From: Deltaproteobacteria bacterium
Lineage (GTDB): Bacteria > Desulfobacterota > Binatia > UBA9968
Reading direction: 5' to 3'
Length of the DNA stretch: 64,000 nucleotides
Assembly: GCA_009692615.1 (NCBI GenBank)
Contig: SHYW01000001.1
Coordinates: forward strand, 14,348 to 78,347
A program made the position numbers and the translations under genes. The first letter of the stretch is position 1, and every line of letters begins with the position of its first letter. Under the pieces are notes generated by a model. It was not told the DNA's origin, ran no database searches, and saw only the letters and a program-made list of their open reading frames with translations. Shown in pieces: positions 7,062 to 63,986 of the stretch.

Positions 7062-8342
7062 GTGCAAGAAATTCTGCTGCAAAAGACCATTTTGGTCGTC
7101 GACGACGAGGACGGCGTGCGCGAATCGGTGTGCGAAGTCTTGAGCGACGAAGGTTATCGCGTCGTCGATACCGCCGACGGCACGCGGGTGATGGAAATGA
7201 TTCGCAAAGAAAAGCCCGAGTTGGTTTTGCTCGACATTTGGATGCCGCAGGTGGACGGCATCGGACTCCTCAAGGAAATCAAAAGCCAGGAGCCCGATAT
7301 CAACGTCGTGATGGTTTCCGGCCACGGCAACATTCATACCGCGGTGACGGCGACCAAATATGGCGCCTTCGATTTCATCGAGAAGCCGGTTTCGTTGGAC
7401 GGCCTGCTGGCCACGGTGCAGCGCGCGCTGGGCGAGTTGCCCGGCGCCCGCGAGCAAAAAAAGCTCCGCGTGCACAAAGCCAAGAGCGTGAAGGCGGCGA
7501 AGAATAGTTCGCCGACGGTGAAGCAGCGGACTTTGAAAAAGAGCGTCGTACTCTCGGGCCAGGGACTCCATTCGGGGGTCAAGAGCGGTTTGATCTTGCA
7601 TCCCTTGCCGCCCAACAGCGGTATTCAATTCACCGGCATCTCCGCCGAGGTTCGGGTGCCGGCGCATTTGGATTATGTCGGCTCCACCGGTTACGCCACT
7701 TCGCTGCGCTCGAAAGGTTTCGCCGTCGGCACGGTGGAGCATTTGCTGGCGGCGTTGCACAGCTACGGCATCACCAACCTATTGATCAAAGTGCAGGGCG
7801 AAGTGCCGATCATGGACGGCTCGGCGTTGGACTTCGCCCAGTCCATCGAAGAAGCGGGCATCGATGAGGAAGACGCCGAGTTGGCACCCATCGTCATCGA
7901 GCGGCGCTATCAGGTTGACGCCGAGGGCGGCGAATCGATCGCCATCGAGCCCGCCGAAGCTTTGTCGGTGCGCTACCTCATGCGTTATCCGGCGCCGGTG
8001 GGGGAGCAGGAATACACCTATCACCATCGCGATGCGGCGTCGTTCAAAAATGAAATCGCGCCGGCGCGCACTTTCGCTTTTCTCCGCGACATCGCCAAGC
8101 TGCAAACCATGGGCTTGGCTAATGGCGGGCGGTTGAGCAATTTTATCCTCATCGACGACGAAAAAATCGTCAACACGGAACTGCGTTTTCCCGAGGAATT
8201 CGCGCGCCATAAAATATTGGACATCCTCGGCGATTTCTATTTGCTCGGCCGGCCGATTCGCGGCGCGATCACCGCGCGCATGACCGGCCACTCGGACAAC
8301 ATCGCGTTGCTGCGGCAAATCCGCGAAGCGATGAAACTCTAA
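7062..8342 (+). CDS. lpxC: Response regulator receiver domain fused to UDP-3-O-acyl-N-acetylglucosamine deacetylase (REC-LpxC fusion)
   Basis: GTG start preceded by AGGAGG. Residues 1-125 form a CheY-like REC domain (VVDDEDG, LLDIWMPQVDG, VVMVSGHG, FIEKPV). A K-rich linker follows. From ~152 a full LpxC begins (VKQRTLKK.. as in E. coli MIKQRTLK) with GLHSG, TVEHLLAAL (E78/H79), PIMDGSA, HKILDILGD (H238/K239/D242/D246) and TGHSDN (H265). Open reading frame is continuous with no stop. Confidence 0.8.
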   Translation: MQEILLQKTILVVDDEDGVRESVCEVLSDEGYRVVDTADGTRVMEMIRKEKPELVLLDIWMPQVDGIGLLKEIKSQEPDINVVMVSGHGNIHTAVTATKYGAFDFIEKPVSLDGLLATVQRALGELPGAREQKKLRVHKAKSVKAAKNSSPTVKQRTLKKSVVLSGQGLHSGVKSGLILHPLPPNSGIQFTGISAEVRVPAHLDYVGSTGYATSLRSKGFAVGTVEHLLAALHSYGITNLLIKVQGEVPIMDGSALDFAQSIEEAGIDEEDAELAPIVIERRYQVDAEGGESIAIEPAEALSVRYLMRYPAPVGEQEYTYHHRDAASFKNEIAPARTFAFLRDIAKLQTMGLANGGRLSNFILIDDEKIVNTELRFPEEFARHKILDILGDFYLLGRPIRGAITARMTGHSDNIALLRQIREAMKL

Positions 8343-37039: not shown

Positions 37040-37290
37040 CGGGAACTGGTCGAAAGATTTTTCGCCCCTATAATAACTCCTTCGTCTGCTTCGTATCTTC
37101 CTGGTGAAATCTACGGCTCGCGGAACAGCCTTCGTAGGATGTGGCGACCGCAGGGAGCCGCATCGTCGGTAAATCGCGCGTGCTCGATGCGGTTCGCGGA
37201 CTCACCGCATCCTACGAGAATCCCTGCGTGTTCTTCGTGCCTTCGTGGTGAAATATGCCGTTGTCGAACGCTACGGTTCGCCGAACAGCC
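37040..37290. repeat. Complex repeat region: CTTCGTG-octamer tracts, internal hairpin, and direct duplication of the amidohydrolase gene 3' end
   Basis: A ~50 bp direct repeat (..CTTCGT..GGTGAAAT..CTACGG.TCGC.GAACAGCC) at ~37072-37122 and ~37222-37285 flanks an inverted repeat (CCTTCGTAGGATG ... CATCCTACGAG). The second copy overlaps the stop region of gene 37271..38434. Confidence 0.6.
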
Positions 37291-38434
37291 GCACGGTGTT
37301 GTCGTAGAGCAGTTTTTGCTTTTGCCTTTCGGTCAGATCCTGCCGTTCGAGGATTTCCAACGCGGCGTTGTCTCTGCCTTCGCCGTGGGGGAAATCGGAG
37401 GAGAACAGGACGTGGTCTTCGCCGATCAATTCGAAGAGCAAGTGGAGCATGCGATCGTCGGCTTCGGCGGCCATGAAGATTCTCCCCGACTTCACATATT
37501 CGCGAATGCTCGCCCGCGGCAGTTCGCCGGCGTTGGGCATGCTCAGGCCAAACGGGTGAGCGCCGCGGTCGAGGGGCAAGTAATGATCCATGCGCGAGAC
37601 CATGTAGAAAATCCATTCGGCGCCGAATTCGAGAAACGCGACTTTCAAATCCTGATAGCGGTCGAGCAAGCGGTGGCCGACGATGGCCATGAAGGCCAAC
37701 TGTGCAGGTAGCGACATGCCGATGATGTGGCAGTCGTAAATGCTCCGTCCCAACTGCGCCAGCGGCGGATAGCTCATGCCCATGTGCACGCAGAGCGGCA
37801 GCTTCGTACGCGCGAACTTATCCCAGATCGGCAGAAAACTCGGATCGGAAAGCAGCCGTTCGCCGGCGGTGCCGAAGACCACGGCTGCTCTGGCGCCGAG
37901 CCGCTGCATCTCTTCGATAGCGGCCAAGGCTTCGCGCGGCTCGCGCAGCGGTAATAAGCCCGACCATTTAAGCCAGGTCGGATTGGCCGCGCATTGTTTG
38001 GCGATGTAGCGATTGTAAGCGCGAAACAACGCGGCCTCGAATTCCGCATCGCTGGTCATATGCGCATAAAGCGTGCTGGGAAACAACATCTGAGCGTCGA
38101 AGCCCATGCGCTCCATGTCGGCCAGCCGCGCCTGGGGATCGTTGAGCGTCATGCTGCCGACCGAACAGTGCTCGCGCTTCATATCGGCGCCGAATTCGCT
38201 CAGCACGTTGCGCGGCGTGTTCGCCTGCTGGGCGCCGGGACCAAGCGCGTGGGGTTCGAGCGACCCTTCGATCAACCAACCGGCGTTGAAATTTCCCAAA
38301 CCGGTTTCGTCGTGCACCGTCACCGGCCGCGGCCGGCGCGCACGAAACTGTTCGGGGAGGTCCTCCCACATACGCGGATTGATCGAGCCATGGGCGTCGG
38401 CGTCAAATACTCGGTAGCCTTGAAGCATAATCAA
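37271..38434 (-). CDS. Amidohydrolase family protein (amidohydrolase_2, PF04909)
   Basis: TIM-barrel metal-dependent hydrolase pattern (DADAHG..., HMGMSYP, FSSDFPHGEG). Paralog of 40836..41864. Confidence 0.8.
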   Translation of the reverse strand: MIMLQGYRVFDADAHGSINPRMWEDLPEQFRARRPRPVTVHDETGLGNFNAGWLIEGSLEPHALGPGAQQANTPRNVLSEFGADMKREHCSVGSMTLNDPQARLADMERMGFDAQMLFPSTLYAHMTSDAEFEAALFRAYNRYIAKQCAANPTWLKWSGLLPLREPREALAAIEEMQRLGARAAVVFGTAGERLLSDPSFLPIWDKFARTKLPLCVHMGMSYPPLAQLGRSIYDCHIIGMSLPAQLAFMAIVGHRLLDRYQDLKVAFLEFGAEWIFYMVSRMDHYLPLDRGAHPFGLSMPNAGELPRASIREYVKSGRIFMAAEADDRMLHLLFELIGEDHVLFSSDFPHGEGRDNAALEILERQDLTERQKQKLLYDNTVRLFGEP

Positions 38435-38480
38435 ATTTTCCTTTTCAAGTGTTTCATCGGTGCCATGTTCAAATTGTTTT

Positions 38481-38564
38481 GTTCACCACGAAGCGCACGA
38501 AGGACACGAAGGGTTCGGATAATTTAATCTTCAACCTTCGTGATCTTCGTGTCCTTCGTGGTGA
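38481..38564. repeat. Hairpin element with CACGAAG-octamer stems and GTTCGGATA loop
   Basis: TTCACCACGAAGCGCACGAAGGACACGAAGG - GTTCGGATAATTTAATCTTCAA - CCTTCGTGATCTTCGTGTCCTTCGTGGTGAA. Between the amidohydrolase gene and the SBP pseudogene. Confidence 0.75.
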
Positions 38565-38581
38565 ATATCCTGTCTCATCGT

Positions 38582-39553
38582 TCAGCGCAGTTTGCGCCGC
38601 GCCTCGGCGAGAAACCCGTTTTCTTCGAGAGCGCGCACGAAGGCCGGGTTGTTGAGTTGGTTGATGTCGACCTGGGTGACTTTGGGATTGATCTTGGCGA
38701 CGATGCGCTGGACGATTTTCCAGGCGGCGGGATCGGGCATGAGTTCGATGGTCGCCATCTGGGTCAGCACTTTGTAGGAGGCTTCGGCGTCTTCGAGGCG
38801 CGGGAAACGAAAACTCTTGCGCAGGATCTCCGTAACGTCGGTTTTGGCTGCGGGGTCGTGGATCAGCAGGACGCTGTCGATCAGGCCCTTGAGCAAGCGC
38901 GTGATGGTGTCCGGCGAACTCGACGGCGTGTCGCGCAGAAAGCAAATGGTCGTGCCTTGATAGGGTATCGGTAGTTTGCCGATATCGGCGAGAACATTGG
39001 CGTCGACGCCGCCGTTGCCGAGGGCCTGGGTGACCGTGGCGGTGTCGCCGAGGATGCGCATTTTTAAATCGTACTTGTCCGCATCGATACCGAGAAAATC
39101 CAAAGCGATCATGGTCTGCAACCAAAAGCCGCCGCCGATGCTTTGCACGCCGAAGGTTTTGCCGCGCAACTCTTCCAGCGTGCGGATTTCTTTTCTTGCG
39201 ATTAGCTCCCGGGGAATCTTCTGCACCGGTGAGGCGACGCATTGCAATCGCATACCGCCGGCCGCGGCGCTGAGCGCGTTGGCCGGCGAGCCGTAGTTGT
39301 ATTGCACTTGGCCAGACGAGAGCGTCGCCATACTGAGCGAGCCGTTGCGCAGTTGCACGAGGCGAACGTCAAGGCCGTATTTTCTAAACGTGCCTCTCTC
39401 AATGCCGACCCACATGGGCCCGACGGTTTCGTTTTGGCCGGCGTAGGCGACGAGTGTCGGGCTCGGGGTTTGAGCATTCGCTACGCTTACGCCCGCCGTC
39501 TAGGCGATCATGACCGCGTTTAACGCTAAACGGATTTGCCGCTTCTGCTGCAT
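38582..39553 (-). pseudogene. NMT1/SsuA-family ABC substrate-binding protein with in-frame TAG inside the signal peptide
   Basis: ORF 38582..39415 starts at MWVGIERGTFRKYGLD, which aligns to the internal MPWIAxEAGLFxKYDLD of its paralogs. Manual upstream translation gives MQQKRQIRLALNAVMIA*TAGVSVANAQTPSPTLVAYAGQNETVGP-MWVG, with the TAG at 39500..39502 (minus strand) and ATG at 39553. Confidence 0.65.
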
Positions 39554-39731
39554 GGCGCGACCCTCTCGCGATGGGCAATGGGAACCGATTTCTGCCAGTA
39601 TACTGAAAAAGCCTGTAGGAGTCCTTCGACGAAGCTTAGGACGAACGGAGGGGATTTAAAATCATTGAAGATTTTCCGTTCATGCTGTGGCTCTCGAAGC
39701 ATTCCGAAACTTTTTTCAGCAATTTGCTAAA

Positions 39732-40742
39732 TCATTGCCAGAGCCGTTTGAAAAAACCGCTTTTCTCCAACTCGTCGACGTAACGGTTGTCGTAATAAGC
39801 TGTCAGTGGAGTCTTTTGCGCTGCCTGGCCATCGATCAACTTCAGACCGACGAGTTGCTCGGCGAGATCCTTGAAAACCTCAGGCGGCACGCGCGGGTCT
39901 TTGGCGAAGGCGTCGATGCCGGCCTGATAGCTTTCTTCGAGCATGATGGTGCGGCTAATTTTAGTGTACTTGCCGAGCACCTTGACGGCCAAGGCTTTAT
40001 CGTCGTGAATCTTCTTCAAGCCGTCGTACACCGCGGCGATGAAACGTTTGACCACATCGGCGTTCTTGTCGGCGTAGCCGCGCCGCGCGACGATGCCTTG
40101 TTCGATGAAACGGATATTCATGTCGCGGATCTGTTTGATGCTCACCAGCTCGCGAAAACCTTTTTCGCGCAGGACGACGCTTTGCGGCGCCGGAATCATG
40201 GCGCCGGCGATGGCGTTGGTGCTGAGCGCGGTCATGGACTCCGGATAGCCGCCGGTTTGCACGATGACGGCGTCGCTAACATTGGACCGGTCCAAGATCG
40301 CCTTCGCGGTGAAATGGGACACCGAGCCGAAGCGGGTTACGCCGACGGGCTTGCCGGACAATTGCCCGATTTGGGTAATCGACGGCTGGACGTAGAGCGG
40401 CACGCTGAAGGATTTCACCAACGCGGCGACTTGGATGACGTCGCCGCCCTTGAGCACGTTGGAAATCACCGCCGGACCCGCCATACCGGCGAGATCGGCT
40501 TCGCCGGCGAGCATCGACTGCACGATCATCGACGACGCTCCGGCGAATATCGGATCGACTTCCAAGCCATGCTTCTCGAACAGCCTCGCTTCATAGGCCA
40601 CTAGAAAAGGCAGGCTGTGATAGGAAATCGGTGAGTAGGGAAATTTAATCTTGTCGAGGGCGAACGTAGAGCCCGCGAAAATTAGCAGCGAAGCCAGTAA
40701 TGTCAGGGAGCGTAGCAAATTTTTCATTGATATTAACCTCAA
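39732..40742 (-). CDS. ABC transporter substrate-binding protein (NMT1/THI5-like)
   Basis: Intact 336 aa with signal peptide (MKNLLRSLTLLASLLIFAGSTFA). Same family as 22035, 38582 and 51304. Confidence 0.8.
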   Translation of the reverse strand: MRLISMKNLLRSLTLLASLLIFAGSTFALDKIKFPYSPISYHSLPFLVAYEARLFEKHGLEVDPIFAGASSMIVQSMLAGEADLAGMAGPAVISNVLKGGDVIQVAALVKSFSVPLYVQPSITQIGQLSGKPVGVTRFGSVSHFTAKAILDRSNVSDAVIVQTGGYPESMTALSTNAIAGAMIPAPQSVVLREKGFRELVSIKQIRDMNIRFIEQGIVARRGYADKNADVVKRFIAAVYDGLKKIHDDKALAVKVLGKYTKISRTIMLEESYQAGIDAFAKDPRVPPEVFKDLAEQLVGLKLIDGQAAQKTPLTAYYDNRYVDELEKSGFFKRLWQ

Positions 40743-40835
40743 GAAGAACCCCTCGATAAGGAGTGACGGCCTACTCGGGGAACCGGAAAGAATTAATCCG
40801 ATTTCCCGAGTAGCGCGCAGCGCGTAGCGAGGGAT

Positions 40836-41864
40836 TCAGATTTTGTAAAAGCGCCGAGCGTTGTCGCCCAGGATCGCCGCTTTGTGTTCGTCCTTCAAAT
40901 CTTTGCGCACGACGATCTCGTCGATTTCTTCCAAGCAGTTGTCCAGCGAAATCTCGTGGGGAAAATCCGAGGCGAACATGAAAGGCTCGGGGCCGACGCG
41001 CTCGATGGCGTAGGCTAGCGCTTTCTCGTTACCTTCGCAGCTGCAAAATAATTTGCCGCTGGAAAAATATTCCACCGGTTTGCGTTTGATTCTTAGCCCG
41101 CCGTATTCCTGTTCTCGGGAGAGACGGTCGAGCACCATCGGTATCCAGCAGGTACCGCCTTCCAAGAAGCCGACCCGCAGGTCGGGAAATTCATCGAGCA
41201 CGCCGTCGACGATCATGCCCGTGGCGGCGATGGCCAGCGGCACCGGCATACCGAGGGCGCGGGTGGCGGGGAAGACTGTATAGGAATTGAAACCGAGATC
41301 GCCGTAACAGCCGCCGTGGACGGCGAGGGCGCAATCGAGCTTGGCGGCTTCTTCATAAACCGGCCAGAAATGTTTGGCGCTCAAGTGCGGGTTGAGTCCG
41401 TTGGACGGCAGCATGGCGGCAACCATGCCGAGATCTTTGACGGCGCGGCGTAATTCTAATACCGCGGCGGAAACATCTTGCAGGGGAATCAAGGCGATGC
41501 CTTTGAGGCGGGAATTGTATTTCAAATATTTCGCCGCGAGCCAGTCGTTATACGCTTTCGCATAAGCGATCGCCCATGGGGTAAAAACCACTTGGCCATA
41601 GGCGAGACCTTCGGTGGGGAAAAGCGCGCTAAATTCCAAACCCATCTTGTCGAGAAACTGCACCCACTTCTCCGGGCCGACGCTGGGATCGAAGGTTCCC
41701 GGTTTGCGCTCTTCCAAGCGCGGTGTGTGAAAGCGGTCGAGACTCGGCAAGACGCGCCGCGGATTCATATGACCGGTGGTTTTAAACGGCTCGCCGACCA
41801 GCCGGATGATCTCGTCGGTGTTCTCCATCACGTGGCCGTCGCAATCGACATACTTGTGCGCCAT
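40836..41864 (-). CDS. Amidohydrolase family protein (amidohydrolase_2)
   Basis: MAHKYVDCDGHV start (metal-binding HxH equivalent) and ASDFPHE near the C-terminus. Paralog of 37271..38434. Confidence 0.8.
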   Translation of the reverse strand: MAHKYVDCDGHVMENTDEIIRLVGEPFKTTGHMNPRRVLPSLDRFHTPRLEERKPGTFDPSVGPEKWVQFLDKMGLEFSALFPTEGLAYGQVVFTPWAIAYAKAYNDWLAAKYLKYNSRLKGIALIPLQDVSAAVLELRRAVKDLGMVAAMLPSNGLNPHLSAKHFWPVYEEAAKLDCALAVHGGCYGDLGFNSYTVFPATRALGMPVPLAIAATGMIVDGVLDEFPDLRVGFLEGGTCWIPMVLDRLSREQEYGGLRIKRKPVEYFSSGKLFCSCEGNEKALAYAIERVGPEPFMFASDFPHEISLDNCLEEIDEIVVRKDLKDEHKAAILGDNARRFYKI

Positions 41865-42128
41865 GGTTCTGCCTCCCAATGCTTTGCATTTCCTCCTGCA
41901 TAGTGAAGCTTGGGGTCGGCTGTCAACAGCTGATCGGAATTGCTGTAAAAATTATTTCGCAGTAGACGCATCGGATGATTAGCCGCAAAGAGCGCAAACC
42001 GCACAAAAAAGGAATCGGAATCGTAGGAACAAGGCGTGCCTTGCCCCTGTGGCGGTGGTGGAATGTTCGTCCAGATTTGCTTGCGAAGACAAAAACCTTT
42101 GCGTAGGATCGACGCGGTTGGAGTTGTC

Positions 42129-42932
42129 TGCATGGGATCGCTTAGCGGTATCATAATTTTTGCATTGGCGCTTATGACGGCGGCGATTTCGATGAGTGCT
42201 AATTCGAAGCAACCGGAGGACATGGTGCGCGTGGCCGGCGGGGCTTTTTTGATGGGCAGCAAAGATGGAGCAGAAGATGAACGGCCGCAGCATTCAGTCG
42301 ATGTCGCGGCTTTTTTCATCGATCGTACCAAGGTTACCAATTCCCAGTTCGCCGAGTTTCTCAATGACATCGGTCCCAAGGGAGCCAAGGGAGAAAATTA
42401 TTTCGATGTCGAGGACAACGACGCCCGTGTGCATCGGCGCGATGGCACGTGGCAAGCGGACGTTGGTTTTGAAAATAATCCCGTCGTCGAAGCGTCTTGG
42501 CATGGCGCGCTGACGTTTTGTCGTTGGCGCGGCAAACGTTTGCCCAGCGAAGCTGAATGGGAGAAGGCGGCGCGCGGCACCGATGGGCGAAAATATCCCT
42601 GGGGCAACGAACCGCCGGATGGGACGCGGGCGCATTTCAACGGCGGCTGGAACGATTTTCGTCCGGTGGGAAGTTTTCCCAAGGGGGTCAGTCCCTACGG
42701 CATCCTCGATGGCGCGGGCAATGGCTGGGAGTGGGTGAGTAGCGCCTATCTGCCGTATCCTTACAGATCGAATGACGGCCGCGAAGATCTCAGCCGCGAG
42801 CAGGTGCGCGTCACCCGCGGCGGCGGTCAAGATGGGCGCGCCGACGAATTGACCACGACTCATCGCGGGCGCCATGTGTCGCGCAACCCGCGCGGCGGCC
42901 ATCATAACATCAGTTTTCGCTGCGCCGGCTGA
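42129..42932 (+). CDS. Formylglycine-generating enzyme (FGE-sulfatase/SUMF1) family protein, secreted or membrane-anchored
   Basis: N-terminal hydrophobic segment then MVRVAGGAFLMGS...RPQHSVDVAAFFIDRTKVTNSQFAEF...GKRLPSEAEWEKAARGTDGRKYPWG... = PF03781 pattern. No DinB_2 domain, so not EgtB. Confidence 0.8.
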   Translation, partial: CMGSLSGIIIFALALMTAAISMSANSKQPEDMVRVAGGAFLMGSKDGAEDERPQHSVDVAAFFIDRTKVTNSQFAEFLNDIGPKGAKGENYFDVEDNDARVHRRDGTWQADVGFENNPVVEASWHGALTFCRWRGKRLPSEAEWEKAARGTDGRKYPWGNEPPDGTRAHFNGGWNDFRPVGSFPKGVSPYGILDGAGNGWEWVSSAYLPYPYRSNDGREDLSREQVRVTRGGGQDGRADELTTTHRGRHVSRNPRGGHHNISFRCAG

Positions 42933-42945
42933 ACCTTCATCCACC

Positions 42946-43590
42946 ATGTCAGTCTATCTCGTCATTAAAGGTATCCTCATCGGTTTCGTCGTCGCCGTGC
43001 CAGTGGGACCGTTGGGTATTCTGTGCATCAACCGCGCGCTTGGCACGGGCGCGCTGTGCGGATTGTTGTCGGGACTCGGTGTGGCCACGGCGGACGCCTT
43101 GGCTGCGGGGATCGCCGCGCTAGGAATTTCGTTGGTGTCAGGCATCTTGAGCGATTATCAAATTCCCTTGCGCGTCGTCGGCGGAATTTTTCTCTGCTAC
43201 TTGGGCTGGCAGACTTATTGGACGGAGCCTAAAGCGCAAGCCGCGTCGGGCCAAGTCAGCGGCCTGTTGAACGCCTATGCGACGACTTTTTTTTTGACCA
43301 TCTCCAATCCGGTAACGATACTTTCATTCATCGCGATTTACGCCGGTTTGCATGTGCCGAGCTTGCACGGCCGCTATTTCGCTGCCACGGCGCTTGCCTG
43401 CGGCGTGTTTGTCGGCTCGGCTTCCTGGTGGGTCGCGATGTTCGTGACGATGACCGTCTGCCGCAGTAAGTTCGACTTGCGCTTGGTTCATTGGGTGCAT
43501 CGCATCTCCGGTGTCCTGATCGGCGGTTTCGGCATCGCGATTCTGCTCAGTTTGACGCCGCTGAAAGCCATGATCGGCATTGAGTTCTAA
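42946..43590 (+). CDS. LysE/RhtB family amino-acid exporter
   Basis: ~214 aa, six TM segments, LysE-type N-terminal motif (GILIGFVVAVPVGPLGILCI). Confidence 0.7.
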   Translation: MSVYLVIKGILIGFVVAVPVGPLGILCINRALGTGALCGLLSGLGVATADALAAGIAALGISLVSGILSDYQIPLRVVGGIFLCYLGWQTYWTEPKAQAASGQVSGLLNAYATTFFLTISNPVTILSFIAIYAGLHVPSLHGRYFAATALACGVFVGSASWWVAMFVTMTVCRSKFDLRLVHWVHRISGVLIGGFGIAILLSLTPLKAMIGIEF

Positions 43591-44563
43591 CATGGCCAAC
43601 CCGCAAGATTCGTCAGTGCGCCACGATGGCGCGGTTCCTTCAGCGGTCAACTGCGTGTTGGCGGGCTCTTATCTTCTCGTCAATGTTTATCAGTTTGTCG
43701 TTTTGCCGCTTTGGCTACTGCCGAGTGCGCGTCCCTGGGGTTGGACGCTACTGCCATTCGCGCTGCTCAATAATCCGTTCTGGAGTCTGCTGCACGAGGC
43801 GATACACGATCTGCTCCATGCGAACCGGCGCGTGAACGGCGTCATCGGCCGCGGCCTGGCGATTTTGTTCGGCTCGCCGTTTCGCATTCTGCGCCTAAGC
43901 CATCTGTTGCATCATAAATTGAATCGCCTGCCAGTGGAGGGAACGGAATATTACGATCGTGACAAAAGTACCAAAGCCGCGGCGGCGCCGGGATATTTTT
44001 TTCAGATTTTAATTGGGCTGTATTTAGTCGAGGTGGTGAGCCCGATGTTGTTTCTGCTGCCGCGCGCTTGGTTGCAATGGTTCAAAGCGCGCTATATGCC
44101 GCCGCAAAGCGTCAGCGCTATCTTGATGCAGAACTGGCTTGGCGCCGAAGCGCTGCGCGAGATTCGCGTGGATGGATTGCTAACGTTGACCTGGCTGTCG
44201 TTATCGTTTTGGCTTTACGGCGAAAACTGGCCGATGCTTCTAGCGCTGTTATTGGCGCGCGGCTTTTTGATTTCTTTTCTCGATAACGTTTATCACTACG
44301 CGACGCCGGTGAGCGATATATTCTACGCCAAAAATCTGTGTTTGCCGGCGCCGTTGAGCAAACTGTTGCTTAATTTCAATCTGCACGGCATCCATCACAT
44401 CAACCCGGCGATCTCGTGGATTCATTTGCCGAAAGCGTTCGCGGTGCAAGCGGGCAAGGTTCAAGGCGGCTATTTCGCCGCCGCGCTCAGCCAATTCGGC
44501 GGCCCCATCGCGCTGCAGGACTTGCCTCAGAGCGGTGTGGCACTGAGCTTGCGCGCGGAATGA
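43580..44563 (+). CDS. Fatty acid desaturase family protein
   Basis: Three His boxes (HEAIHDLLH, HLLHHKLN, HGIHH) with a membrane-desaturase TM pattern. Confidence 0.8.
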   Translation: MSSNMANPQDSSVRHDGAVPSAVNCVLAGSYLLVNVYQFVVLPLWLLPSARPWGWTLLPFALLNNPFWSLLHEAIHDLLHANRRVNGVIGRGLAILFGSPFRILRLSHLLHHKLNRLPVEGTEYYDRDKSTKAAAAPGYFFQILIGLYLVEVVSPMLFLLPRAWLQWFKARYMPPQSVSAILMQNWLGAEALREIRVDGLLTLTWLSLSFWLYGENWPMLLALLLARGFLISFLDNVYHYATPVSDIFYAKNLCLPAPLSKLLLNFNLHGIHHINPAISWIHLPKAFAVQAGKVQGGYFAAALSQFGGPIALQDLPQSGVALSLRAE

Positions 44564-44618
44564 TATGGGTGGGACGGGCGCAGCATGCCGCGCCCCTACG
44601 GGACATTCTAAATTCGGC

Positions 44619-45647
44619 TCAGTTTTGTTTGCGAAACAGCAGGACGGAAAACCATTGGTTGGGATCGGTGAAGTGGGCCACCGGCGCTAGGCCGAAGAAA
44701 CCCAACTGTTCTTGCAAGCGGTTGGGATCGAACTTGCGGCTGATCTCGACGAGGATATTTTCGTTTTCCTGCCATTCGAAATTCGCACCGCTATCGGCGA
44801 AGCGAATTCGTTGGCGGGCGGTGGCGACACCGTGCATTTCAATTTGCCGCCACTCGGGATTGAACCACGAGTCGTAGCGCATTCGTTCGACATCGAAGTT
44901 ACCGGCCATGCGCCGGTTGATGTTTTGAAAGACGTTTAAGATAAACTTGGCGGTGATGCCTCGGCTGTCGTTGTAGGCGGCTTCCAGGAGTTTCGGATCT
45001 TTGACGCGATCGGCGCCGAGCAGCAAATAATCGTTGGGCCCCATGGCCGCCGACAGGGCGCGAAAAAAGCGCGGGAAGTCGGTGAGATTGAAGTTGCCGA
45101 TGGTGCTGCCGAGAAAGACGAATAGGGTCGGCAGGTTTTTATCGATGGCGCCGAAGCCTGCTTCGTAGCGTGAGTGAATGCCGTGAAATTCGATTTGCGG
45201 AAAATCTTTTTGCACAGCGCTTTGCGATGCGAGCAGACCGGCGGCGCTGACATCGATGGGGGCAAAGATGCAATGGCGCCGTTGCGCCAGTTGCTCGGTG
45301 AGCAAATGGACGGTTTTCTTGCTGTAGCCGGCGCCGAGCTCGACGATGCATTCAACCGGCGCGCTGGCGATGATGTCTTTGGCGCGGGCTTCGAGGATGC
45401 TATTCTCCGTGCGGGTCAGATAATATTCCGGTAACTCGCAGATCTCTTCGAACAGTTCCGAGCCGGTGTCGTCATAAAGATGATAAGCTTCGAGCCAGCG
45501 CGGCTGATCCCAAAGGGTCGTCAAGATCGACATCGTCGGTGCGCCGTCGAGATCGGCGCCGGCTAACGACCAGATGCCGGGATGGTGCGAAAGCCAATGG
45601 AGTCGTTGCTCGGTGGCGAAAATACGTGGCGGTGTCGGTTGTTTCAT
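44619..45647 (-). CDS. egtD: L-histidine N-alpha-methyltransferase EgtD family (Methyltransf_33)
   Basis: LPEYYLTRTENSILEA, ECIVELGAGYSKKTVHLL (SAM site), FVFLGSTIGNF, YLLLGADRVKD, VEISRKF all match EgtD blocks. Likely start MKQPTPPRIF. Confidence 0.75.
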   Translation of the reverse strand: MKQPTPPRIFATEQRLHWLSHHPGIWSLAGADLDGAPTMSILTTLWDQPRWLEAYHLYDDTGSELFEEICELPEYYLTRTENSILEARAKDIIASAPVECIVELGAGYSKKTVHLLTEQLAQRRHCIFAPIDVSAAGLLASQSAVQKDFPQIEFHGIHSRYEAGFGAIDKNLPTLFVFLGSTIGNFNLTDFPRFFRALSAAMGPNDYLLLGADRVKDPKLLEAAYNDSRGITAKFILNVFQNINRRMAGNFDVERMRYDSWFNPEWRQIEMHGVATARQRIRFADSGANFEWQENENILVEISRKFDPNRLQEQLGFFGLAPVAHFTDPNQWFSVLLFRKQN

Positions 45648-45702
45648 GGACGGGGAGACTATAAAAGAAATTGACCAACGATGCGACCCCGAGCGAGCTT
45701 CA

Positions 45703-46470
45703 ATGTCTAATCCATCGAGCACGATAAAATTTCACGACGTCAATTTCGTACTGCCCGGCGGTAAGAAGCTGCTGGCCAATCTCAATCTCGACGTCGGCGC
45801 CGGCGAGACCTTGGTGTTACTCGGCCGTAGCGGCTCGGGCAAGACCACGACGATGAAACTGATCAATCGGTTGATCGATCCGACCTCGGGACGGCTGGAA
45901 GTTGAAGGCAAAGCGACAGTCGACTGGGATCCGATCCAACTGCGCCGGCGCATCGGCTACGTGATCCAAGAGATCGGTTTGTTTCCCCATCTGACCATCG
46001 AACAGAATATCGGCGTGGTGCCACGCTTGGAAGGCTGGGCCGCTGAACGCATTCAACTGCGTGCGCGCGAACTTTTAAATCTAGTTGGCCTAAACGCTGA
46101 CAGTTTTGCCGGCCGCTTTCCCAGGGAACTATCCGGCGGCCAGCGCCAACGAGTCGGCGTGGCGCGGGCGCTGGCCGCCGATCCGCCGGTGATTTTGCTC
46201 GACGAACCGTTCGGCGCCCTCGATCCAATCACCCGCCGCGAGATTCAACGGGAGTTCAAAAATCTCCAGCAGGAACTCGGCAAGACCATGGTTTTCGTCA
46301 CCCATGATATCGCCGAAGCGTTCGTGCTGGCCAATCGCATCGCCCTGCTCAAGGACGGCGAAATGATTTTACTTGGGCCGCCCGCCGAGTTGCTCGAATC
46401 GAACCATCCCGAGGCGCGCGCCTTCGCCGAGTGCTTTCACGACGGCCAGAATATAGCGAGGCCGGCGTGA
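45703..46470 (+). CDS. Glycine betaine/quaternary-amine type ABC transporter ATP-binding protein (OpuCA/EgtV-like, no CBS domain)
   Basis: Walker A GRSGSGKTT, signature LSGGQRQRVGVARAL, Walker B LLDEPFGALD. Divergent from egtD. Confidence 0.85.
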   Translation: MSNPSSTIKFHDVNFVLPGGKKLLANLNLDVGAGETLVLLGRSGSGKTTTMKLINRLIDPTSGRLEVEGKATVDWDPIQLRRRIGYVIQEIGLFPHLTIEQNIGVVPRLEGWAAERIQLRARELLNLVGLNADSFAGRFPRELSGGQRQRVGVARALAADPPVILLDEPFGALDPITRREIQREFKNLQQELGKTMVFVTHDIAEAFVLANRIALLKDGEMILLGPPAELLESNHPEARAFAECFHDGQNIARPA

Positions 46471-48026
46471 CCCTGCTGGAATTTTTCACGCACAATCGTG
46501 GCGAGTTGGGCGAGCTGATCTTAGAACATTTGTTTCTGGTCATCGTTTCCACCAGCATCGCGATCCTGATCGGCGTGCCCCTCGGGATTCTCTTGACCCG
46601 CAAACCGGGGCTCAGCAAACCGGTGTTGGGCTTCGCCAACATCATGCAGACGGTGCCGAGTCTGGCGCTGTTCGGTTTTTTGATCCCGCTCAATTTCTAT
46701 TTCTTCGGGGTCAAGATTGTCGGCGGCATCGGCGCCCACACCGCGATCGTCGCTTTGGTGCTCTATTCGCTGTTGCCGATCATTCGCAATACCTTTACCG
46801 GCATCAACAACGTCGATCCGGCGATCCGCGAAGCCGGGCGCGGCATGGGCATGACCGATCGCCAACTGCTCTTTCAAGTGGAATTGCCTTTGGCTCTCGG
46901 CGTGATCATCGCCGGCGTGCGCGTCGCCACGGTGATCTGCGTCGGCACGGCGACCATCGCCGCCGCCATCGACGCCGGGGGATTGGGGCGCTACATCTTT
47001 CGCGGTTTGCGCGCCAACGACAATGTCTTGATCCTCGCCGGCGCGCTGCCCGCCGCGCTGATTGCCTTGGCGGCGGATTTACTTTTGGGTTATGTCGAGC
47101 GGGCGATTCAGCTAAGCGGCGCGATCAGAATCAATACTCGCAAACTGGTTTGGTCGGCTGCGGCGCTTGGCTGCGGGGTTCTGGTCGCGAGCTATTTTCT
47201 CATTGGCAAGAGCGGCGCGCGCATCGCGGTGGGTTCTAAGGATTTCACCGAGCAGGTGATTCTCGGCGAGATTCTCGCCCAGGCGATCGAAGCGACAACC
47301 GGCGCCCAGGTGGTGCGCCGCTTCGATCTTGGCGGCAACTTGGCGCATGAAGCGATGATCGCCGGCGAGATCGATCTTTACGCCGAATACACCGGCACGG
47401 GTCTGCTGGCGATACTCAAAGAGAAGCCCATCGCCGATCCCCAGGAAGTTTATCGGCGTGTTCAGGGCGAGTATGCCAAGCGGTTCAACTTCGTTTGGAC
47501 CGAGCCCTTGGGTTTCAACAATACCTTCGCGATTTTGGTGCGCGGCGAGGACGCGCGCAAGTTCAATCTCAAAACCGTCAGCGATGCGGCGAAGGTGTCG
47601 GCGCAATGGCGCGCCGGCTTCGGCCAAGATTTCATGTCCCGCGCCGACGGTTATCCGGGTTTTTCCAAAGCCTACGGTTTTCACTTCGAAGAAACCCGCG
47701 AGATGGATCTGTCGCTCACCTATCGCGCCTTGGCGGAAAAACAGGTCGATCTGATCGCGGGCAATTCCACCGACGGTTTGATCGCGCGTTACGGATTGTT
47801 TCAACTGGCCGACGACCGCAAATACTTTCCACCCTATGACGCCGTGCCGGTGGTGCGCCAAGCGACGCTAGAAAAATATCCCGCGCTGCGTGAAGTGTTG
47901 AAGCGGCTCGGCGCGATTCTCACCGTCGACGAAATGCGCAAGCTCAATTACGCCGTGGACGGCGAAAAGCGCCAAGCTAAAGAAGTCGCGCGGGAGTTCT
48001 TGCTGAGCAAAGGTCTTCTGCGTTAA
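46467..48026 (+). CDS. ABC transporter permease fused to OpuAC-type (PF04069) substrate-binding domain (OpuCB/OpuCC fusion, EgtU-like architecture)
   Basis: N-terminal BPD-transporter permease with EAA-like loop (AIREAGRGMGMTDRQLLFQVELP). C-terminal SBD (GSKDFTEQVILGEILAQ...). The GTG start at ~46467 overlaps the ATPase stop (GTGA). Confidence 0.85.
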   Translation: MTLLEFFTHNRGELGELILEHLFLVIVSTSIAILIGVPLGILLTRKPGLSKPVLGFANIMQTVPSLALFGFLIPLNFYFFGVKIVGGIGAHTAIVALVLYSLLPIIRNTFTGINNVDPAIREAGRGMGMTDRQLLFQVELPLALGVIIAGVRVATVICVGTATIAAAIDAGGLGRYIFRGLRANDNVLILAGALPAALIALAADLLLGYVERAIQLSGAIRINTRKLVWSAAALGCGVLVASYFLIGKSGARIAVGSKDFTEQVILGEILAQAIEATTGAQVVRRFDLGGNLAHEAMIAGEIDLYAEYTGTGLLAILKEKPIADPQEVYRRVQGEYAKRFNFVWTEPLGFNNTFAILVRGEDARKFNLKTVSDAAKVSAQWRAGFGQDFMSRADGYPGFSKAYGFHFEETREMDLSLTYRALAEKQVDLIAGNSTDGLIARYGLFQLADDRKYFPPYDAVPVVRQATLEKYPALREVLKRLGAILTVDEMRKLNYAVDGEKRQAKEVAREFLLSKGLLR

Positions 48027-48041
48027 GGGTGGGGTGCCCGG

Positions 48042-48347
48042 TCAGGCTGCGCGTTTTCGTTTTGGGCGTGGGGTAAAATGAATGGCGATACCAACGGCAT
48101 CCAAAATAGCCGCAAGTGATGAAAACTTTGGATTACCTTTTTCAGATAGCACGCGGTAAAGATTCTCGCGATTGAGCGCGGTTAGCTTCGAAAGTGCTCG
48201 AACTCCTCCTCCAGCTTCAACGACGTTACGAAGCCCGACAAAGAACACTTCTTCGGAGTCGTGGTAACAAGCATTAAGATATTCCGCGGCTTCATTGGGA
48301 TCGCGGAGCTGTTTGAGTAGTTCACTTTGATAGCTTCTTGTCGGCAT
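48042..48347 (-). CDS. Putative addiction module antidote protein (HigA-like, TIGR02684-type HTH)
   Basis: DPNEAAEYLNACYHDSEE...GGVRALSKLTALNRENLYRVLSEKGNPKFSSLAAILDAVG matches the family consensus. Lies downstream of and overlapping the killer gene. Confidence 0.7.
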   Translation of the reverse strand: MPTRSYQSELLKQLRDPNEAAEYLNACYHDSEEVFFVGLRNVVEAGGGVRALSKLTALNRENLYRVLSEKGNPKFSSLAAILDAVGIAIHFTPRPKRKRAA

Positions 48348-48675
48348 GATATTCCCTCCACAGTTTTTTGGCCTGCGCGATATCGCGCTTCTGCGAACCT
48401 TTGTCGCCGCCGCAGAGCAGCACAACCAAAAACAATCCATCAGGGCCGAAGTACACCCGGTATCCTGGGCCAAAGGCAATGCGCAATTCATGGACGCCGT
48501 CGCCGATGCTTTTGGAGTCTCCCAGGTTTCCGAGGCGAACACGGTCGAGTCGTGCGCGAATGGTGGCTCGCGCCTTTATGTCCTTGAGCTGATTTAGCCA
48601 ATCGAGAAACGGTATTTTTCCATCGATTGCCTCATAGATGAGAAGCTGCCGTTCCACGCGTGAATCGTAGCTCAA
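48322..48675 (-). CDS. Type II TA system RelE/ParE-superfamily toxin (addiction module killer protein, HigB-like)
   Basis: KIPFLDWLNQLKDIKARATIRARLDRVRLGNLGDSKSIGDGVHELRIAFGPGYRVYF is typical of TIGR02683. Toxin-first gene order. Confidence 0.75.
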   Translation of the reverse strand: MSYDSRVERQLLIYEAIDGKIPFLDWLNQLKDIKARATIRARLDRVRLGNLGDSKSIGDGVHELRIAFGPGYRVYFGPDGLFLVVLLCGGDKGSQKRDIAQAKKLWREYHADKKLSK

Positions 48676-48753
48676 AAGCTACTACGCTGCAATCTGCGAT
48701 CTTGAGTAGAACATGTTGCTTTGCGAAATCGCTGGCGGTCGAGCCGTACGCTA

Positions 48754-49920
48754 CTAACCTTTATGTGCGCGAATGATATTTTGCCCCAGGCGCCAGCGCA
48801 GCACTTCGTTGGCGCCTTCGGTGATGCGGGTGCTGCGGATTTGGCGGTACCACCATTCGAGCGGCAGTTCCTTCATCAAACCCAAACCGCCGTGCACTTG
48901 GATCGAGCGGTCGACGACGCGGCTAGCCATTTCAGTCGCCATGACTTTGACCATGTAGGAGAGATCGCGCACGTCTTCGCCGCGGTCGACGCGCCAGGCG
49001 CATTCGTAGACCATGTTGCGCACGGCGTGAATCTCCATGGCCGAGTCGGCGATCATGAATTGAATCGCTTGGCGCTCGGATAGCGGCTTGCCGAAGGTGA
49101 CGCGCACTTTGGAACACTCGATCATCATGTCGAGGGCGCGCGAGGCGATACCGACGGGGCGGGCGCCGTGGCCGCGGATGCGTCCTTCGCCGATCCATTT
49201 TTGCGCGATGGAAAAGCCGCCGCCGATCTCGCCGATCAGGTTGTTCGCCGGCACGCGGACGTTTTCGAAATACAATTGCCATGGTGCTTCACCCATCATC
49301 GCTGGCCATTGGCGCTCGAGATTGACGCCGGGGCTTTTCAAATCCACCGCGAAGCAGCTGATGCCGCCGCGCGCTTTCTTCTCCGGGTCGGTGACCGCCA
49401 TCAGTTGCACGTAGTCGGCGCGGCCGGCCGCGGTAATAAATCTCTTGGTGCCGTTAATAATAAAATCATCGCCATCGCGTACCGCACGGGTGCGCATGTT
49501 GGCCGGGTCGCTGCCGGCGTCGGGTTCGGTTTGGGCGAAGCAGAACTTCATCTCGCCGCGCAGCACCGGTTTTAAAAACCGTTCCTTCTGTTCGTCGCTG
49601 CAATAAAATAATACCGGCCGCACCTCCGGTCCGAATAATTCTAGACTGCGAAATGGCAGAGAAGCGGCGCGGGCGATCTCTTCGTGAATCACGCAGCGCG
49701 GCAACAATCCCAGGCCGGCGCCGCCATATTCCTCCGGTACGTCGAGCATCCACAAGCCCATCGCCTTGGCTTTTTCCTGCAATGGCTTGAGCAGATGATC
49801 GGGCATGGGCCCTTCGCTGTCGTGGCGGTACTCGCGTTCCAGCGGGATCAGATCTTTGTCGACGAACTTGCGCACGGTGGCGCGCAGGATTTGGATTTCT
49901 TCGGGTAAGTTGAAGTCCAT
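48754..49920 (-). CDS. Acyl-CoA dehydrogenase family protein
   Basis: N-terminal helical, middle beta-sheet (FITAAG..) and C-terminal four-helix domains. Catalytic Glu region near the C-terminus. Confidence 0.9.
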   Translation of the reverse strand: MDFNLPEEIQILRATVRKFVDKDLIPLEREYRHDSEGPMPDHLLKPLQEKAKAMGLWMLDVPEEYGGAGLGLLPRCVIHEEIARAASLPFRSLELFGPEVRPVLFYCSDEQKERFLKPVLRGEMKFCFAQTEPDAGSDPANMRTRAVRDGDDFIINGTKRFITAAGRADYVQLMAVTDPEKKARGGISCFAVDLKSPGVNLERQWPAMMGEAPWQLYFENVRVPANNLIGEIGGGFSIAQKWIGEGRIRGHGARPVGIASRALDMMIECSKVRVTFGKPLSERQAIQFMIADSAMEIHAVRNMVYECAWRVDRGEDVRDLSYMVKVMATEMASRVVDRSIQVHGGLGLMKELPLEWWYRQIRSTRITEGANEVLRWRLGQNIIRAHKG

Positions 49921-62909: not shown

Positions 62910-63986
62910 TCAAAACTCTTCGCAGCGCCACTTCTGCTCGCCCCAGATATCGGCGCCGCCGATGATCGCGTCCCGGGCTTCCATGGGTAATTCGCCGCGC
63001 GCGGAGACCGGCGCTGCGCCAGGGAAGGGAAATATTTTGATCTCGTTGTAGGGACCGACTGTGCGCGACATCGCCGGTAACTCGACCGGCCGGTCGAGGC
63101 TGCCGGTGCTGACGATGGCGTCAGCTTCCGGAACGTAGAAGAGCACGGCGCTGTCGCTGCCTTGTTTGCCGCCGTTCTCGTAGGTGACCAGCGTGGTCTT
63201 GATGCCGATCCGTTCGCAGGCGCGCACGGCGAACATGACATCGACGAAGGCATTGCCGCCGCCGATCCACGTGATCAACGTGCCATCGGCGCCCATCGCT
63301 TTCGCCAACCCCGCGGCGTTTTGCGCTCCGACTTCTTTGCCGTGACTGGTTTCGAAACGAATGCGCTGCAAGACCACGCCGGCGAAGTTCAATGTTTTGC
63401 CGTGAGCTTCATACAAGCCGAGAATCAGCGGATGGTTTTGCCAATCCCAAGTGGTCGGATAGTAGCCGCGGCCCGATCTCGTCGTGTCCACCGTCACGGC
63501 ACCGTCGAAGATTTCGTTGGGGTGGACAAACGTCGCGAGGGATTCGCGCAGCGAGATGCCGTAATAGCCGACGCCGGAGTGCACATGCTGCGGATCGGTG
63601 ATGCAGCCTTGGATCAGCATTACCGTTGGCAGCTGGGGATTTCGTTCGCGTATGTCGTAGACTGTAACGTTTTCAGGCTCAAGCGTTTGCGTGATGGCGG
63701 CGATTCGTTCGGCGACTTTGAATTCCGCTTGCTGGATCGCGTGGTGCGCGTCGAGTTCGCCGAGGCCGGGGGCGATGCGGAAGTTGACGATCAAATGCGC
63801 ATGTTGACTAAAACGCGAGATCGCCTCGCCGGGACCGGTCATGTCGAGGGTCGCGCTGCGTTGTACCGTGGTGCCGGCGCGAATCGTGCATTCGTAGGCC
63901 GCGGCGGCGATCACGGTCATGCCTGACAAACGATGGGTGCGTCCTGCGCCGACGTTCGCCACCGGTCCTAAGATGCCGGGAAACAC
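62910..63986 (-). CDS. Glycine/sarcosine/betaine/D-proline reductase component B-like family protein (GRDB family)
   Basis: Resemblance to GrdB/PrdB-type subunits over the length. No in-frame TGA, so not a selenoprotein form. The start codon at 63986 is near the window edge and the gene may extend beyond it. Confidence 0.5.
   Translation of the reverse strand: MFPGILGPVANVGAGRTHRLSGMTVIAAAAYECTIRAGTTVQRSATLDMTGPGEAISRFSQHAHLIVNFRIAPGLGELDAHHAIQQAEFKVAERIAAITQTLEPENVTVYDIRERNPQLPTVMLIQGCITDPQHVHSGVGYYGISLRESLATFVHPNEIFDGAVTVDTTRSGRGYYPTTWDWQNHPLILGLYEAHGKTLNFAGVVLQRIRFETSHGKEVGAQNAAGLAKAMGADGTLITWIGGGNAFVDVMFAVRACERIGIKTTLVTYENGGKQGSDSAVLFYVPEADAIVSTGSLDRPVELPAMSRTVGPYNEIKIFPFPGAAPVSARGELPMEARDAIIGGADIWGEQKWRCEEF

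Follow-up and report, generated by a model that had tools for sequence, protein, structure and literature searches.

The 64,000-nucleotide stretch analyzed here (the window; positions 14,348 to 78,347 of contig SHYW01000001.1, assembly GCA_009692615.1, from a metagenome-assembled genome of a Deltaproteobacteria bacterium of the Binatia) carries an egtD gene, predicted to encode a histidine methyltransferase, next to the two genes of an ATP-binding cassette (ABC) importer. As listed in Table 1, these genes belong to a tightly packed block of six, which encode an FGE-like protein, a LysE-family transporter, a desaturase-like protein, EgtD, an ATPase and a permease-binding domain fusion. The egtD gene is convergent with the desaturase-like gene and divergent from that of the ATPase, and the start codons of egtD and the ATPase gene are exactly 55 bp apart (45648-45702), in line with the distance of about 55 bp given in an original prediction made from this DNA. 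That prediction had recognized the ATPase and the permease fused to an OpuAC-type binding domain, with which the Pfam domains agree. It described the pair itself correctly and overlooked the conserved LysE, desaturase-like and FGE-like neighbours.

In the fusion protein, a transmembrane domain (~46467-47110) is followed by a linker helix and by the binding domain (~47220-48023). The fusion and its end at 48026 were borne out, while the start formerly placed at 46431 is less likely than 46467. The latter forms an ATGA overlap with the ATPase stop codon and is kept in orthologues, and the permease fusion most likely begins there.

Table 1. Features of the egtD-importer locus, other genes of the window and selected loci of relatives (L numbers designate loci).
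Feature	Position	Strand	Evidence or context
FGE-sulfatase-like protein, secreted	42132-42932	+	PF03781, 167.6 bits
LysE-family transporter, 214 aa, candidate exporter	42946-43590	+	PF01810, 73.2 bits
Fatty-acid-desaturase-like membrane di-iron protein, 323 aa	43592-44563	+	PF00487, 67.8 bits
egtD, predicted S-adenosylmethionine (SAM)-dependent L-histidine N-alpha-trimethyltransferase (hercynine synthase), 342 aa	44619-45647	-	PF10017, TIGR03438
Conserved intergenic element GAGACTATAAAAGAAA-N9/10-GATGCGACC	45655-45688		Conservation in Binatia
ABC transporter ATPase, 255 aa, without C-terminal CBS pair	45703-46470	+	PF00005, 122.9 bits
Permease fused to C-terminal OpuAC-type binding domain, 519 aa	46467-48026	+	BPD_transp_1, 75.8 bits; OpuAC, 210.7 bits
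HigA-like antitoxin (PF21716) and Gp49/HigB-like toxin	48042-48675	-	Directly 3' of the ABC operon
Two Amidohydro_2 and two NMT1-type binding-protein genes	37271-41879	-
Glycine/sarcosine/betaine reductase component B family open reading frame	62910-63986	-	PF09338, 216.6 bits; near the window end
Response-regulator receiver domain fused to LpxC deacetylase domain	7062-8342	+	Directly after NtrY-like histidine kinase
Pyrinomonadaceae egtD-ATPase-permease operon	L136/L137:8201-11539; L138:8233-11539; L096:3508-6807		Between VWA-domain gene and Ser/Thr kinase-TPR gene
egtB-like gene, egtD, ATPase and binding-domain genes	L059:3-3829		4-kb metagenome contig
GH84 'NAGidase'	L005:13570-14724	+	Between senA and the FGE/LysE operon
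Membrane protein beside senB, ~420-430 aa	L044:2695-3999; L049:1684-2970; L055:2360-3643; L005:18074-19327

Identity of the methyltransferase

The egtD product scored 300.6 bits against the NCBIfam equivalog TIGR03438 (cut-off 290.9) and 307.9 bits against Pfam Methyltransf_33 (PF10017; E 8e-92, positions 4-303 of 304), and a phmmer comparison with M. tuberculosis EgtD (7SCF) gave an E value of 1.5e-52. The GSTIGN and E..S..KF blocks on which the original EgtD assignment was based are both present, the former as LGSTIGNF (residues 179-186) and the latter, in the form E..S.KF, as E301-I-S303-R-K305-F306. The roles of the histidine-binding residues are described for M. tuberculosis EgtD (PMC8593015). 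Residues Y39, F47, Y56, G161, T163, N166, Y206, T213, M252, E282 and S284 of that enzyme are all conserved here. The histidine contacts of the window protein (Y58, F66, Y75, N185, Y225, T232, M271, E301 and S303) are thus identical to those of M. tuberculosis, and the same identity extends to 48 Binatia EgtD orthologues. Because the TIGR03438 score lies over the cut-off and all histidine-contact residues are retained, we conclude that the window methyltransferase (METHYLTRANSFERASE) is, as far as its sequence can tell, a true EgtD-type hercynine synthase.

The protein shares with Mycobacterium EgtD (PDB 4PIM, 4UY5-7, 7SCF) the Methyltransf_33 fold and the SAM-binding motif besides the histidine contacts. 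It differs in having an N-terminal extension of ~20 residues, ~40% identity in the aligned region and an Arg where the M. tuberculosis enzyme has D141. The gene context also differs, since the window egtD is not clustered with egtA, egtB, egtC and egtE and is paired with an ABC importer. As with EgtD of Variovorax paradoxus, which supplies SenA with hercynine, the window enzyme is expected to be a hercynine maker. A 100% identical EgtD in an NCBI 'Deltaproteobacteria bacterium' metagenome-assembled genome (MAG) bears the name L-histidine N(alpha)-methyltransferase, and its close relatives are labelled Candidatus Binatia.

Conserved linkage of egtD and the importer

A metagenome scan seeded on the binding domain yielded 80 loci. 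Over all informative loci, the EgtD gene directly adjoins the ATPase gene in 66 of 71, 42 times in divergent and 24 times in co-directional orientation. The divergent loci are those of Binatia, with binding domains 69-100% identical to that of the window. In the co-directional loci the binding domains are 57-62% identical to the window one (82% in a single case) and the EgtDs 33-40%; these distant EgtDs score 357-367 bits on TIGR03438. The co-directional group belongs to the Pyrinomonadaceae (Acidobacteriota), in which egtD, the ATPase gene and the permease gene form a stand-alone operon amid housekeeping genes, seen in a 5.7-Mb genome as well as in a 1.4-Mb contig (Table 1). No EgtB or SenA was found within 8-10 kb of this operon. 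On contig L059, an egtB-like gene, cut at the contig end, precedes the genes for an EgtD and a binding domain that are respectively 35% and 82% identical to those of the window, with the ATPase gene between them, so that the importer type is joined there to an ergothioneine-type egtB-egtD operon.

Within the Binatia, egtD and the ABC genes stay paired in spite of 1-5 kb insertions between egtD and the desaturase-like gene (L032, L035, L037, L038, L040, L041, L044, L047 and L049). Because the phyla, gene orders and neighbourhoods differ, the adjacency is read as a functional link rather than as inherited synteny, and the earlier suggestion that the juxtaposition is meaningful holds over two phyla and two gene orders.

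At one of the five importer loci devoid of EgtD (L078:3234-4382, + strand), a gene for a pyridine-nucleotide-disulfide oxidoreductase resembling sulfide dehydrogenase lies directly upstream on the same strand.

Importer architecture

The ATPase, 82% identical to its orthologue in L005, has an ABC_tran domain only. Its match to the proV model TIGR01186 is confined to positions 4-235 out of 363, and it therefore lacks the CBS pair known from osmoregulated ATPases of the OpuA/OpuC/ProU kind. The original prediction had likened the system to both EgtUV and OpuC/ProU-type transporters. The likeness to OpuF and EgtUV stands, with a CBS-less ATPase and a fused permease; that to OpuC/ProU does not, the CBS pair being missing.

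The binding domain best matched the Thermoanaerobacter OpuBC scaffold of the acetylcholine and nicotine sensors (242 bits), followed by OpuCC (188), Lmo1422/BilEB (180), Helicobacter pylori EgtU (HpEgtU, 175.5), ProX (164) and the Streptococcus pneumoniae EgtU binding domain (SpEgtUC, 157-166). Like EgtUV, or EgtU(A)(BC), of S. pneumoniae, of L. monocytogenes (where it is BilE) and of H. pylori, the importer is encoded by two genes, one for an ATPase that lacks CBS domains and one for a permease whose fused binding domain is of the OpuAC type (subcluster F-III). EgtUV has been described in non-producers, whereas the present importer is found in genomes that are predicted to make hercynine. With Archaeoglobus fulgidus ProX and Bacillus OpuCC/OpuBC it has the OpuAC fold in common; it differs from them by the fusion of the binding domain to the permease, by a partner ATPase without CBS domains and by a genomic tie to egtD instead of osmotic-stress genes. 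Classical osmoprotectant importers are recognized by a CBS pair and a complete aromatic box, whereas here there is no CBS domain and one wall of the box is Asn. Judging from these comparisons, the importer is a distinct subfamily of OpuF/EgtU-type transporters, neither an EgtU orthologue nor a typical ProX/OpuC system. Export of an EgtD-made betaine through the ABC system, as had been proposed earlier, was rejected as implausible, since this is a binding-domain-dependent type I importer.

According to the legend of supplementary figure 19 in the EgtU paper (PMC9732360), Acidobacteria and Cyanobacteria sequences fall in a separate subcluster of unassigned specificity. To go by this legend, that subcluster may be the present subfamily.

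The binding pocket

For the pocket alignment, a query with masked scaffold-like positions and a chimeric query were aligned with Lmo1422, SpEgtUC, HpEgtU and ProX, together with all homologues. Residues are numbered as in the full-length window fusion protein, and the roles of the SpEgtUC residues are those published (bioRxiv 10.1101/2022.05.02.490363, also PMC9732360; PMC12922746). The carboxylate clamp of SpEgtUC (K242, T296, R379 and D381) is conserved in all proteins compared and corresponds to K258, T311, R392 and D394 of the window protein. The cage base N339 (Asn in Lmo1422 and HpEgtU, Asp in ProX) is N352, and E375, which is hydrogen-bonded to the imidazole N-epsilon and is E or D elsewhere, is D388.

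Other positions depart from SpEgtUC. The sulfur contact I243, Leu in Listeria and Pro in both H. pylori and ProX, is D259 here, and the adjoining G244 (Gly in Listeria, Ser in H. pylori, Phe in ProX) is F260. The F293/Y337 switch is Y308/F350, with the same Tyr/Phe combination in H. pylori and ProX, while the T274 position is Gly, as in H. pylori. Among the cage residues, Y341 (Tyr in all others) is replaced by F354, and Y419, the cage wall by the imidazole N-delta (Tyr in Listeria, ProX and OpuCC, Phe in H. pylori), by N433. P401 and R404, which vary, are L415 and T418. In SpEgtUC itself, G244F caused a loss in affinity of ~100-fold, I243A of 30-fold, I243P of 1000-fold and Y419F of 10-fold (bioRxiv 10.1101/2022.05.02.490363; PMC12922746).

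The complete signature, K258 D259 F260 Y308 T311 F350 N352 F354 D388 R392 D394 L415 T418 N433 Y457, hardly varies among ~110 homologues with identities as low as 56%. The search patterns used to find homologues, [VI]GSKDFTE and [EK]P[LF]GFNNT, themselves demanded the KDF and FNN motifs; they set no condition on D388, L415, T418, the Phe that replaces Y341 or the Asn that replaces Y419.

With the clamp fully conserved and three aromatic cage residues kept, the pocket fits a carboxylate-bearing quaternary amine by analogy with the solved binders. Histidine itself was discarded as the transported ligand, as the binding domain retains a quaternary-amine cage. By the same analogy, the Asp and Phe at the sulfur-contact positions should disfavour a thione or selone and could suit a sulfur-free imidazole. 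An ergothioneine importer of the EgtUV kind, one of the earlier suggestions, is disfavoured by these two replacements and by a binding domain closer to OpuBC/OpuCC. In sum, the domain shares with EgtU the clamp, the cage base Asn and the acidic residue equivalent to E375, and is unlike SpEgtUC at the I243, G244, Y341, Y419, P401 and R404 positions. Features common to it and ProX are the Lys-x-Phe motif that follows the first strand, the Tyr/Phe pair at 67/109 and the Thr and Arg carboxylate contacts; it differs in the fourth aromatic wall (ProX Y190, Asn in the window) and in the Asp that takes the place of Pro after the clamp Lys. The original prediction had opposed EgtUC to OpuAC/ProX. The clamp is common to both sides of that comparison, while the sulfur positions are unlike EgtUC and the cage Asn is unlike ProX/OpuC.

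The shared control region

A 34-bp element (Table 1) is found once per locus, 8-10 nt from the egtD start, in ~35 Binatia loci, in an egtD-ATPase spacer that otherwise ranges from 55 to 221 bp. Read on the egtD strand, it has the form TCGCAT-17 nt-TATAGT, and in divergent members the first hexamer is TAGACA or TGGACA. Because of this -35/-10 geometry and its conservation, we infer that the element is probably the egtD promoter, overlapping the start of the control region of the ABC operon. Such a position implies that the egtD mRNA would be nearly leaderless. The element is overlapped by a TATAAA on the + strand that could act for the ABC operon. A search of 41800-48800 against Rfam gave neither a riboswitch nor any other RNA family, and a generic promoter and terminator scan was uninformative, its hits being at or below shuffle expectation.

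Selenoneine genes in relatives

Species-representative genomes were scanned with the desaturase-like protein as seed, which gave 49 loci, nearly all from Binatia-type MAGs. In look-ups, EgtD homologues 72-76% identical to the window protein sat in the same six-gene block. The LysE gene adjoins the desaturase-like gene in 48 of 48 informative loci, the FGE-like gene is present in 30 of 41, and EgtD lies downstream in 34 of 41.

Beside this block, the relatives carry a divergent operon that encodes a GH84 'NAGidase', sometimes an alpha/beta hydrolase, a DinB_2+FGE protein and a glycosyltransferase. The DinB_2+FGE protein is SenA (485-496 bits, cut-off 420) and the glycosyltransferase is SenB (398-402 bits, cut-off 300). 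Both lie 3-10 kb from egtD, and the order of the whole cluster is senB-senA-(hydrolase)-GH84 / FGE-like-LysE-desaturase-like / egtD / ABC. GH84 or SenA was within reach in 28 of the 34 informative loci, and of the 21 loci for which 6.5 kb or more was available upstream, 18 had SenA. No obvious SelD-like (SenC) open reading frame was seen in the inspected gaps and flanks of the relatives, for which no dedicated profile search was made.

SenA uses hercynine as its substrate (bioRxiv 10.1101/2022.04.13.486033). Because senA and senB adjoin in the relatives, the pathway relevant to this lineage is selenoneine, not ergothioneine, a point that the original prediction missed. The Binatia cluster resembles the described sen cluster (senA-senB-senC, sometimes with egtD; Kayrouz et al., bioRxiv 10.1101/2022.04.13.486033) in having SenA and SenB that pass the equivalog cut-offs, and differs from it by the additional GH84, LysE, desaturase-like, FGE-like and ABC importer genes.

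The window keeps only the FGE-LysE-desaturase-egtD-ABC part of this cluster. It was searched by tblastn with a SenA/EgtB homologue and by Pfam scans, which covered 38 of its larger open reading frames. Neither senA nor senB nor GH84 was found in the 64 kb in this way, the sole tblastn match being the stand-alone FGE domain at ~42.2 kb, and the 38 reading frames gave no match to DinB_2, rhodanese or EgtC/EgtE-like families. The earlier statement that no egtB, egtC, egtE or eanB lies nearby is thus supported by both searches. Locus L024 resembles the window in the absence of senA, senB and GH84.

Where GH84-senA-senB would be expected from the relatives, the window has two Amidohydro_2 genes and two for NMT1-type binding proteins, and genes similar to this set flank the ABC operon of L001 on its opposite side. 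This arrangement suggests that a rearrangement deleted the sen half of the cluster, or moved it elsewhere, in the window genome. The HigA/HigB-like pair at the other end of the block is missing at the equivalent position in relatives L001 and L004-L006 and marks a local insertion or rearrangement.

Accessory genes of the cluster

The FGE-like protein has an N-terminal hydrophobic, signal-like segment and resembles the C-terminal domain of EgtB and SenA, without the DinB iron-binding domain. Its best NCBIfam scores, 106.6 bits for SenA (cut-off 420) and 93.1 bits for EgtB (cut-off 360), concern the C-terminal part of the models only. A truncated egtB was considered for this gene and rejected, given that there is neither room nor frame for an upstream DinB domain, that the N-terminus is signal-like and that the scores are far under the EgtB and SenA cut-offs.

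The desaturase-like protein has the His boxes HEAIHDLLH, HLLHH and HGIHH. Its orthologues were found only beside LysE, and mostly near sen genes and egtD. In every informative relative the LysE gene lies directly 5' of the desaturase-like gene, abutting or overlapping it. LysE is a candidate exporter of hercynine, ergothioneine or selenoneine; according to a 2025 paper, no ergothioneine exporter has been identified in any organism (PMC12689799).

The GH84 protein encoded between senA and the FGE/LysE operon in L005 is cytoplasmic, with no signal peptide, and equivalents occur in L004, L009-L016, L019, L021, L023, L025 and others. GH84 enzymes require a 2-acetamido group, and for this reason the Binatia GH84 could cleave the Se-GlcNAc (selenium-N-acetylglucosamine) bond of SenA/SenB intermediates. 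No description of GH84 as a part of sen clusters was found in the searchable literature. In addition, a membrane protein is encoded beside senB in several relatives (Table 1). That of L005 is annotated MFS_1 with a weak Acatn match, and the protein might be the 'putative selenate transporter' mentioned for sen clusters.

A proposed role in hercynine supply

Taken together, these features are best explained, with a probability that we put at roughly 0.45, by egtD and the ABC genes acting as a hercynine supply module, with an importer for hercynine or for a closely similar betaine derived from histidine. EgtD would convert histidine, with three SAM, to hercynine (N-alpha-trimethylhistidine), and the importer would bring in the same compound, or the close betaine, from outside. 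Uptake would amount to recapture of leaked or exported product or to scavenging of hercynine from other soil organisms, and would save SAM. The egtD and ABC units would be under common control of the 55-bp region with its promoter-like element. In Binatia the hercynine pool would feed SenA and SenB, encoded next door in most relatives, for selenoneine, with the adjacent LysE as the likely exporter. Because no sen genes were found in the 64-kb window, hercynine would be the end product in the window genome or would be used by enzymes encoded elsewhere. In this scheme the gene identities, the conserved linkage and the make-up of the pocket are observed, and we infer the ligand, the direction of salvage, the co-regulation and the role of LysE. 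The original idea of a betaine salvage or exchange module survives in its functional pairing and finds no support in its ergothioneine-type importer and in export through the ABC system.

The pocket is consistent with hercynine uptake in that D388 keeps an acid at the E375 position, near the imidazole N-epsilon, and that Asn replaces the cage Tyr beside the N-delta; the ATPase, without a CBS osmosensing domain, also agrees with it. Several points weigh against it. The co-expressed synthesis and uptake of one compound is a rationalisation, five loci carry the transporter without EgtD, and the closest solved relatives of the binding domain are choline and betaine binders. The invariance of KDF and FNN and the 93% linkage to egtD are partly conditioned on the homologue search patterns. 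Moreover, the Phe at the G244 position and the Tyr/Phe at 67/109 are shared by ProX of Archaeoglobus, a binder of glycine betaine and proline betaine, so the pocket is compatible with a small betaine as well.

The main rival is that the transporter imports osmoprotectants in general (glycine betaine, proline betaine, carnitine or choline) and has egtD as its neighbour for a looser reason, for instance with hercynine as a compatible solute made without external betaine, or with imported betaine refilling methyl groups for EgtD. Public annotations name a glycine betaine or osmoprotectant transporter, OpuBC- and OpuCC-type binders are the closest solved relatives, and the K-x-F motif, Y67/F109, the carboxylate clamp and a Pro/Leu-type position 174 recall ProX. 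However, such close adjacency to egtD in two phyla and two gene orders would be unexpected for a general osmoprotectant system, the osmosensing module is missing from the ATPase, and neither the invariant Asn cage wall nor the Asp after the clamp Lys occurs in the glycine betaine, choline and carnitine binders compared. Nor were other osmotic-stress genes present in the neighbourhood, as covered by the window Pfam scans and the Pyrinomonadaceae flanks, and on balance we regard a generic osmoprotectant importer as unlikely. An importer of ergothioneine or selenoneine, which would work like EgtUV and recapture the thione or selone after LysE export, appears slightly less likely still, although the architecture is the same as that of EgtUV, the Binatia importer is embedded in the senA/senB cluster with a LysE exporter candidate, and the L059 contig has the order egtB-like, egtD, ABC. 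The pocket of HpEgtU is also unlike the pneumococcal one and shares Y67/F109 with the window protein. Against these stand the Asp and Phe at the sulfur-contact positions, the second of which is small (Gly or Ser) in both known ergothioneine binders; a carboxylate near the partly negative sulfur or selenium should be unfavourable. No EgtB or SenA was found within 8-10 kb in the Pyrinomonadaceae or in the 64-kb window.

That the adjacency is mere inherited synteny, without coupling and with a substrate unrelated to histidine betaines, is the weakest of the rivals and seems very improbable. Shared ancestry could explain the gene order within the Binatia alone, and the five loci with a transporter and no EgtD would agree with it. 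The pairing recurs, however, in Acidobacteriota, with another gene order, another neighbourhood and EgtDs only 33-40% identical; the pair stays intact where rearrangements have split the remainder of the Binatia cluster, and the shared intergenic region holds a conserved, probably regulatory element.

Other genes of the window

The PF09338 open reading frame comes after a branched-chain-type ABC system, 15 kb from the importer, and its betaine-related chemistry may or may not be relevant to the locus. The fusion of a receiver domain to LpxC near the other end of the window is unusual.

Significance

The gene identities reported here are ordinary and already annotated, and the co-localization of egtD with some sen clusters is already published. 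In the searchable literature we found no account of an importer subfamily of its own whose coupling to egtD is conserved in two phyla, of the invariant pocket of that subfamily, or of the Binatia cluster as enlarged by GH84, LysE, desaturase-like and FGE-like genes. Ergothioneine and selenoneine are of interest as antioxidants, and the microbial transport of both and of their precursor is poorly known. To our knowledge, the ergothioneine-specific EgtU is the only characterized importer in this field.

The egtD-tied importer subfamily of two soil phyla is a testable candidate for uptake of hercynine (or selenoneine), and its pocket offers natural specificity-switch residues for comparison with EgtU. 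It is a bolder and somewhat doubtful proposal that the Lys-Asp-Phe / Phe / Asn subfamily would represent the first importer in bacteria with specificity for hercynine or selenoneine-type histidine betaines. In Binatia it would join LysE as exporter, the cytoplasmic GH84 as the enzyme that cleaves the Se-GlcNAc intermediate, and the desaturase-like and FGE-like proteins in a larger system to make, export and recapture selenoneine. If true, this system would go well past the three-gene sen cluster described so far. The Binatia supercluster also nominates accessory genes for selenoneine, namely the LysE exporter, GH84, the desaturase-like and the FGE-like genes, and hercynine may be exchanged between soil organisms.

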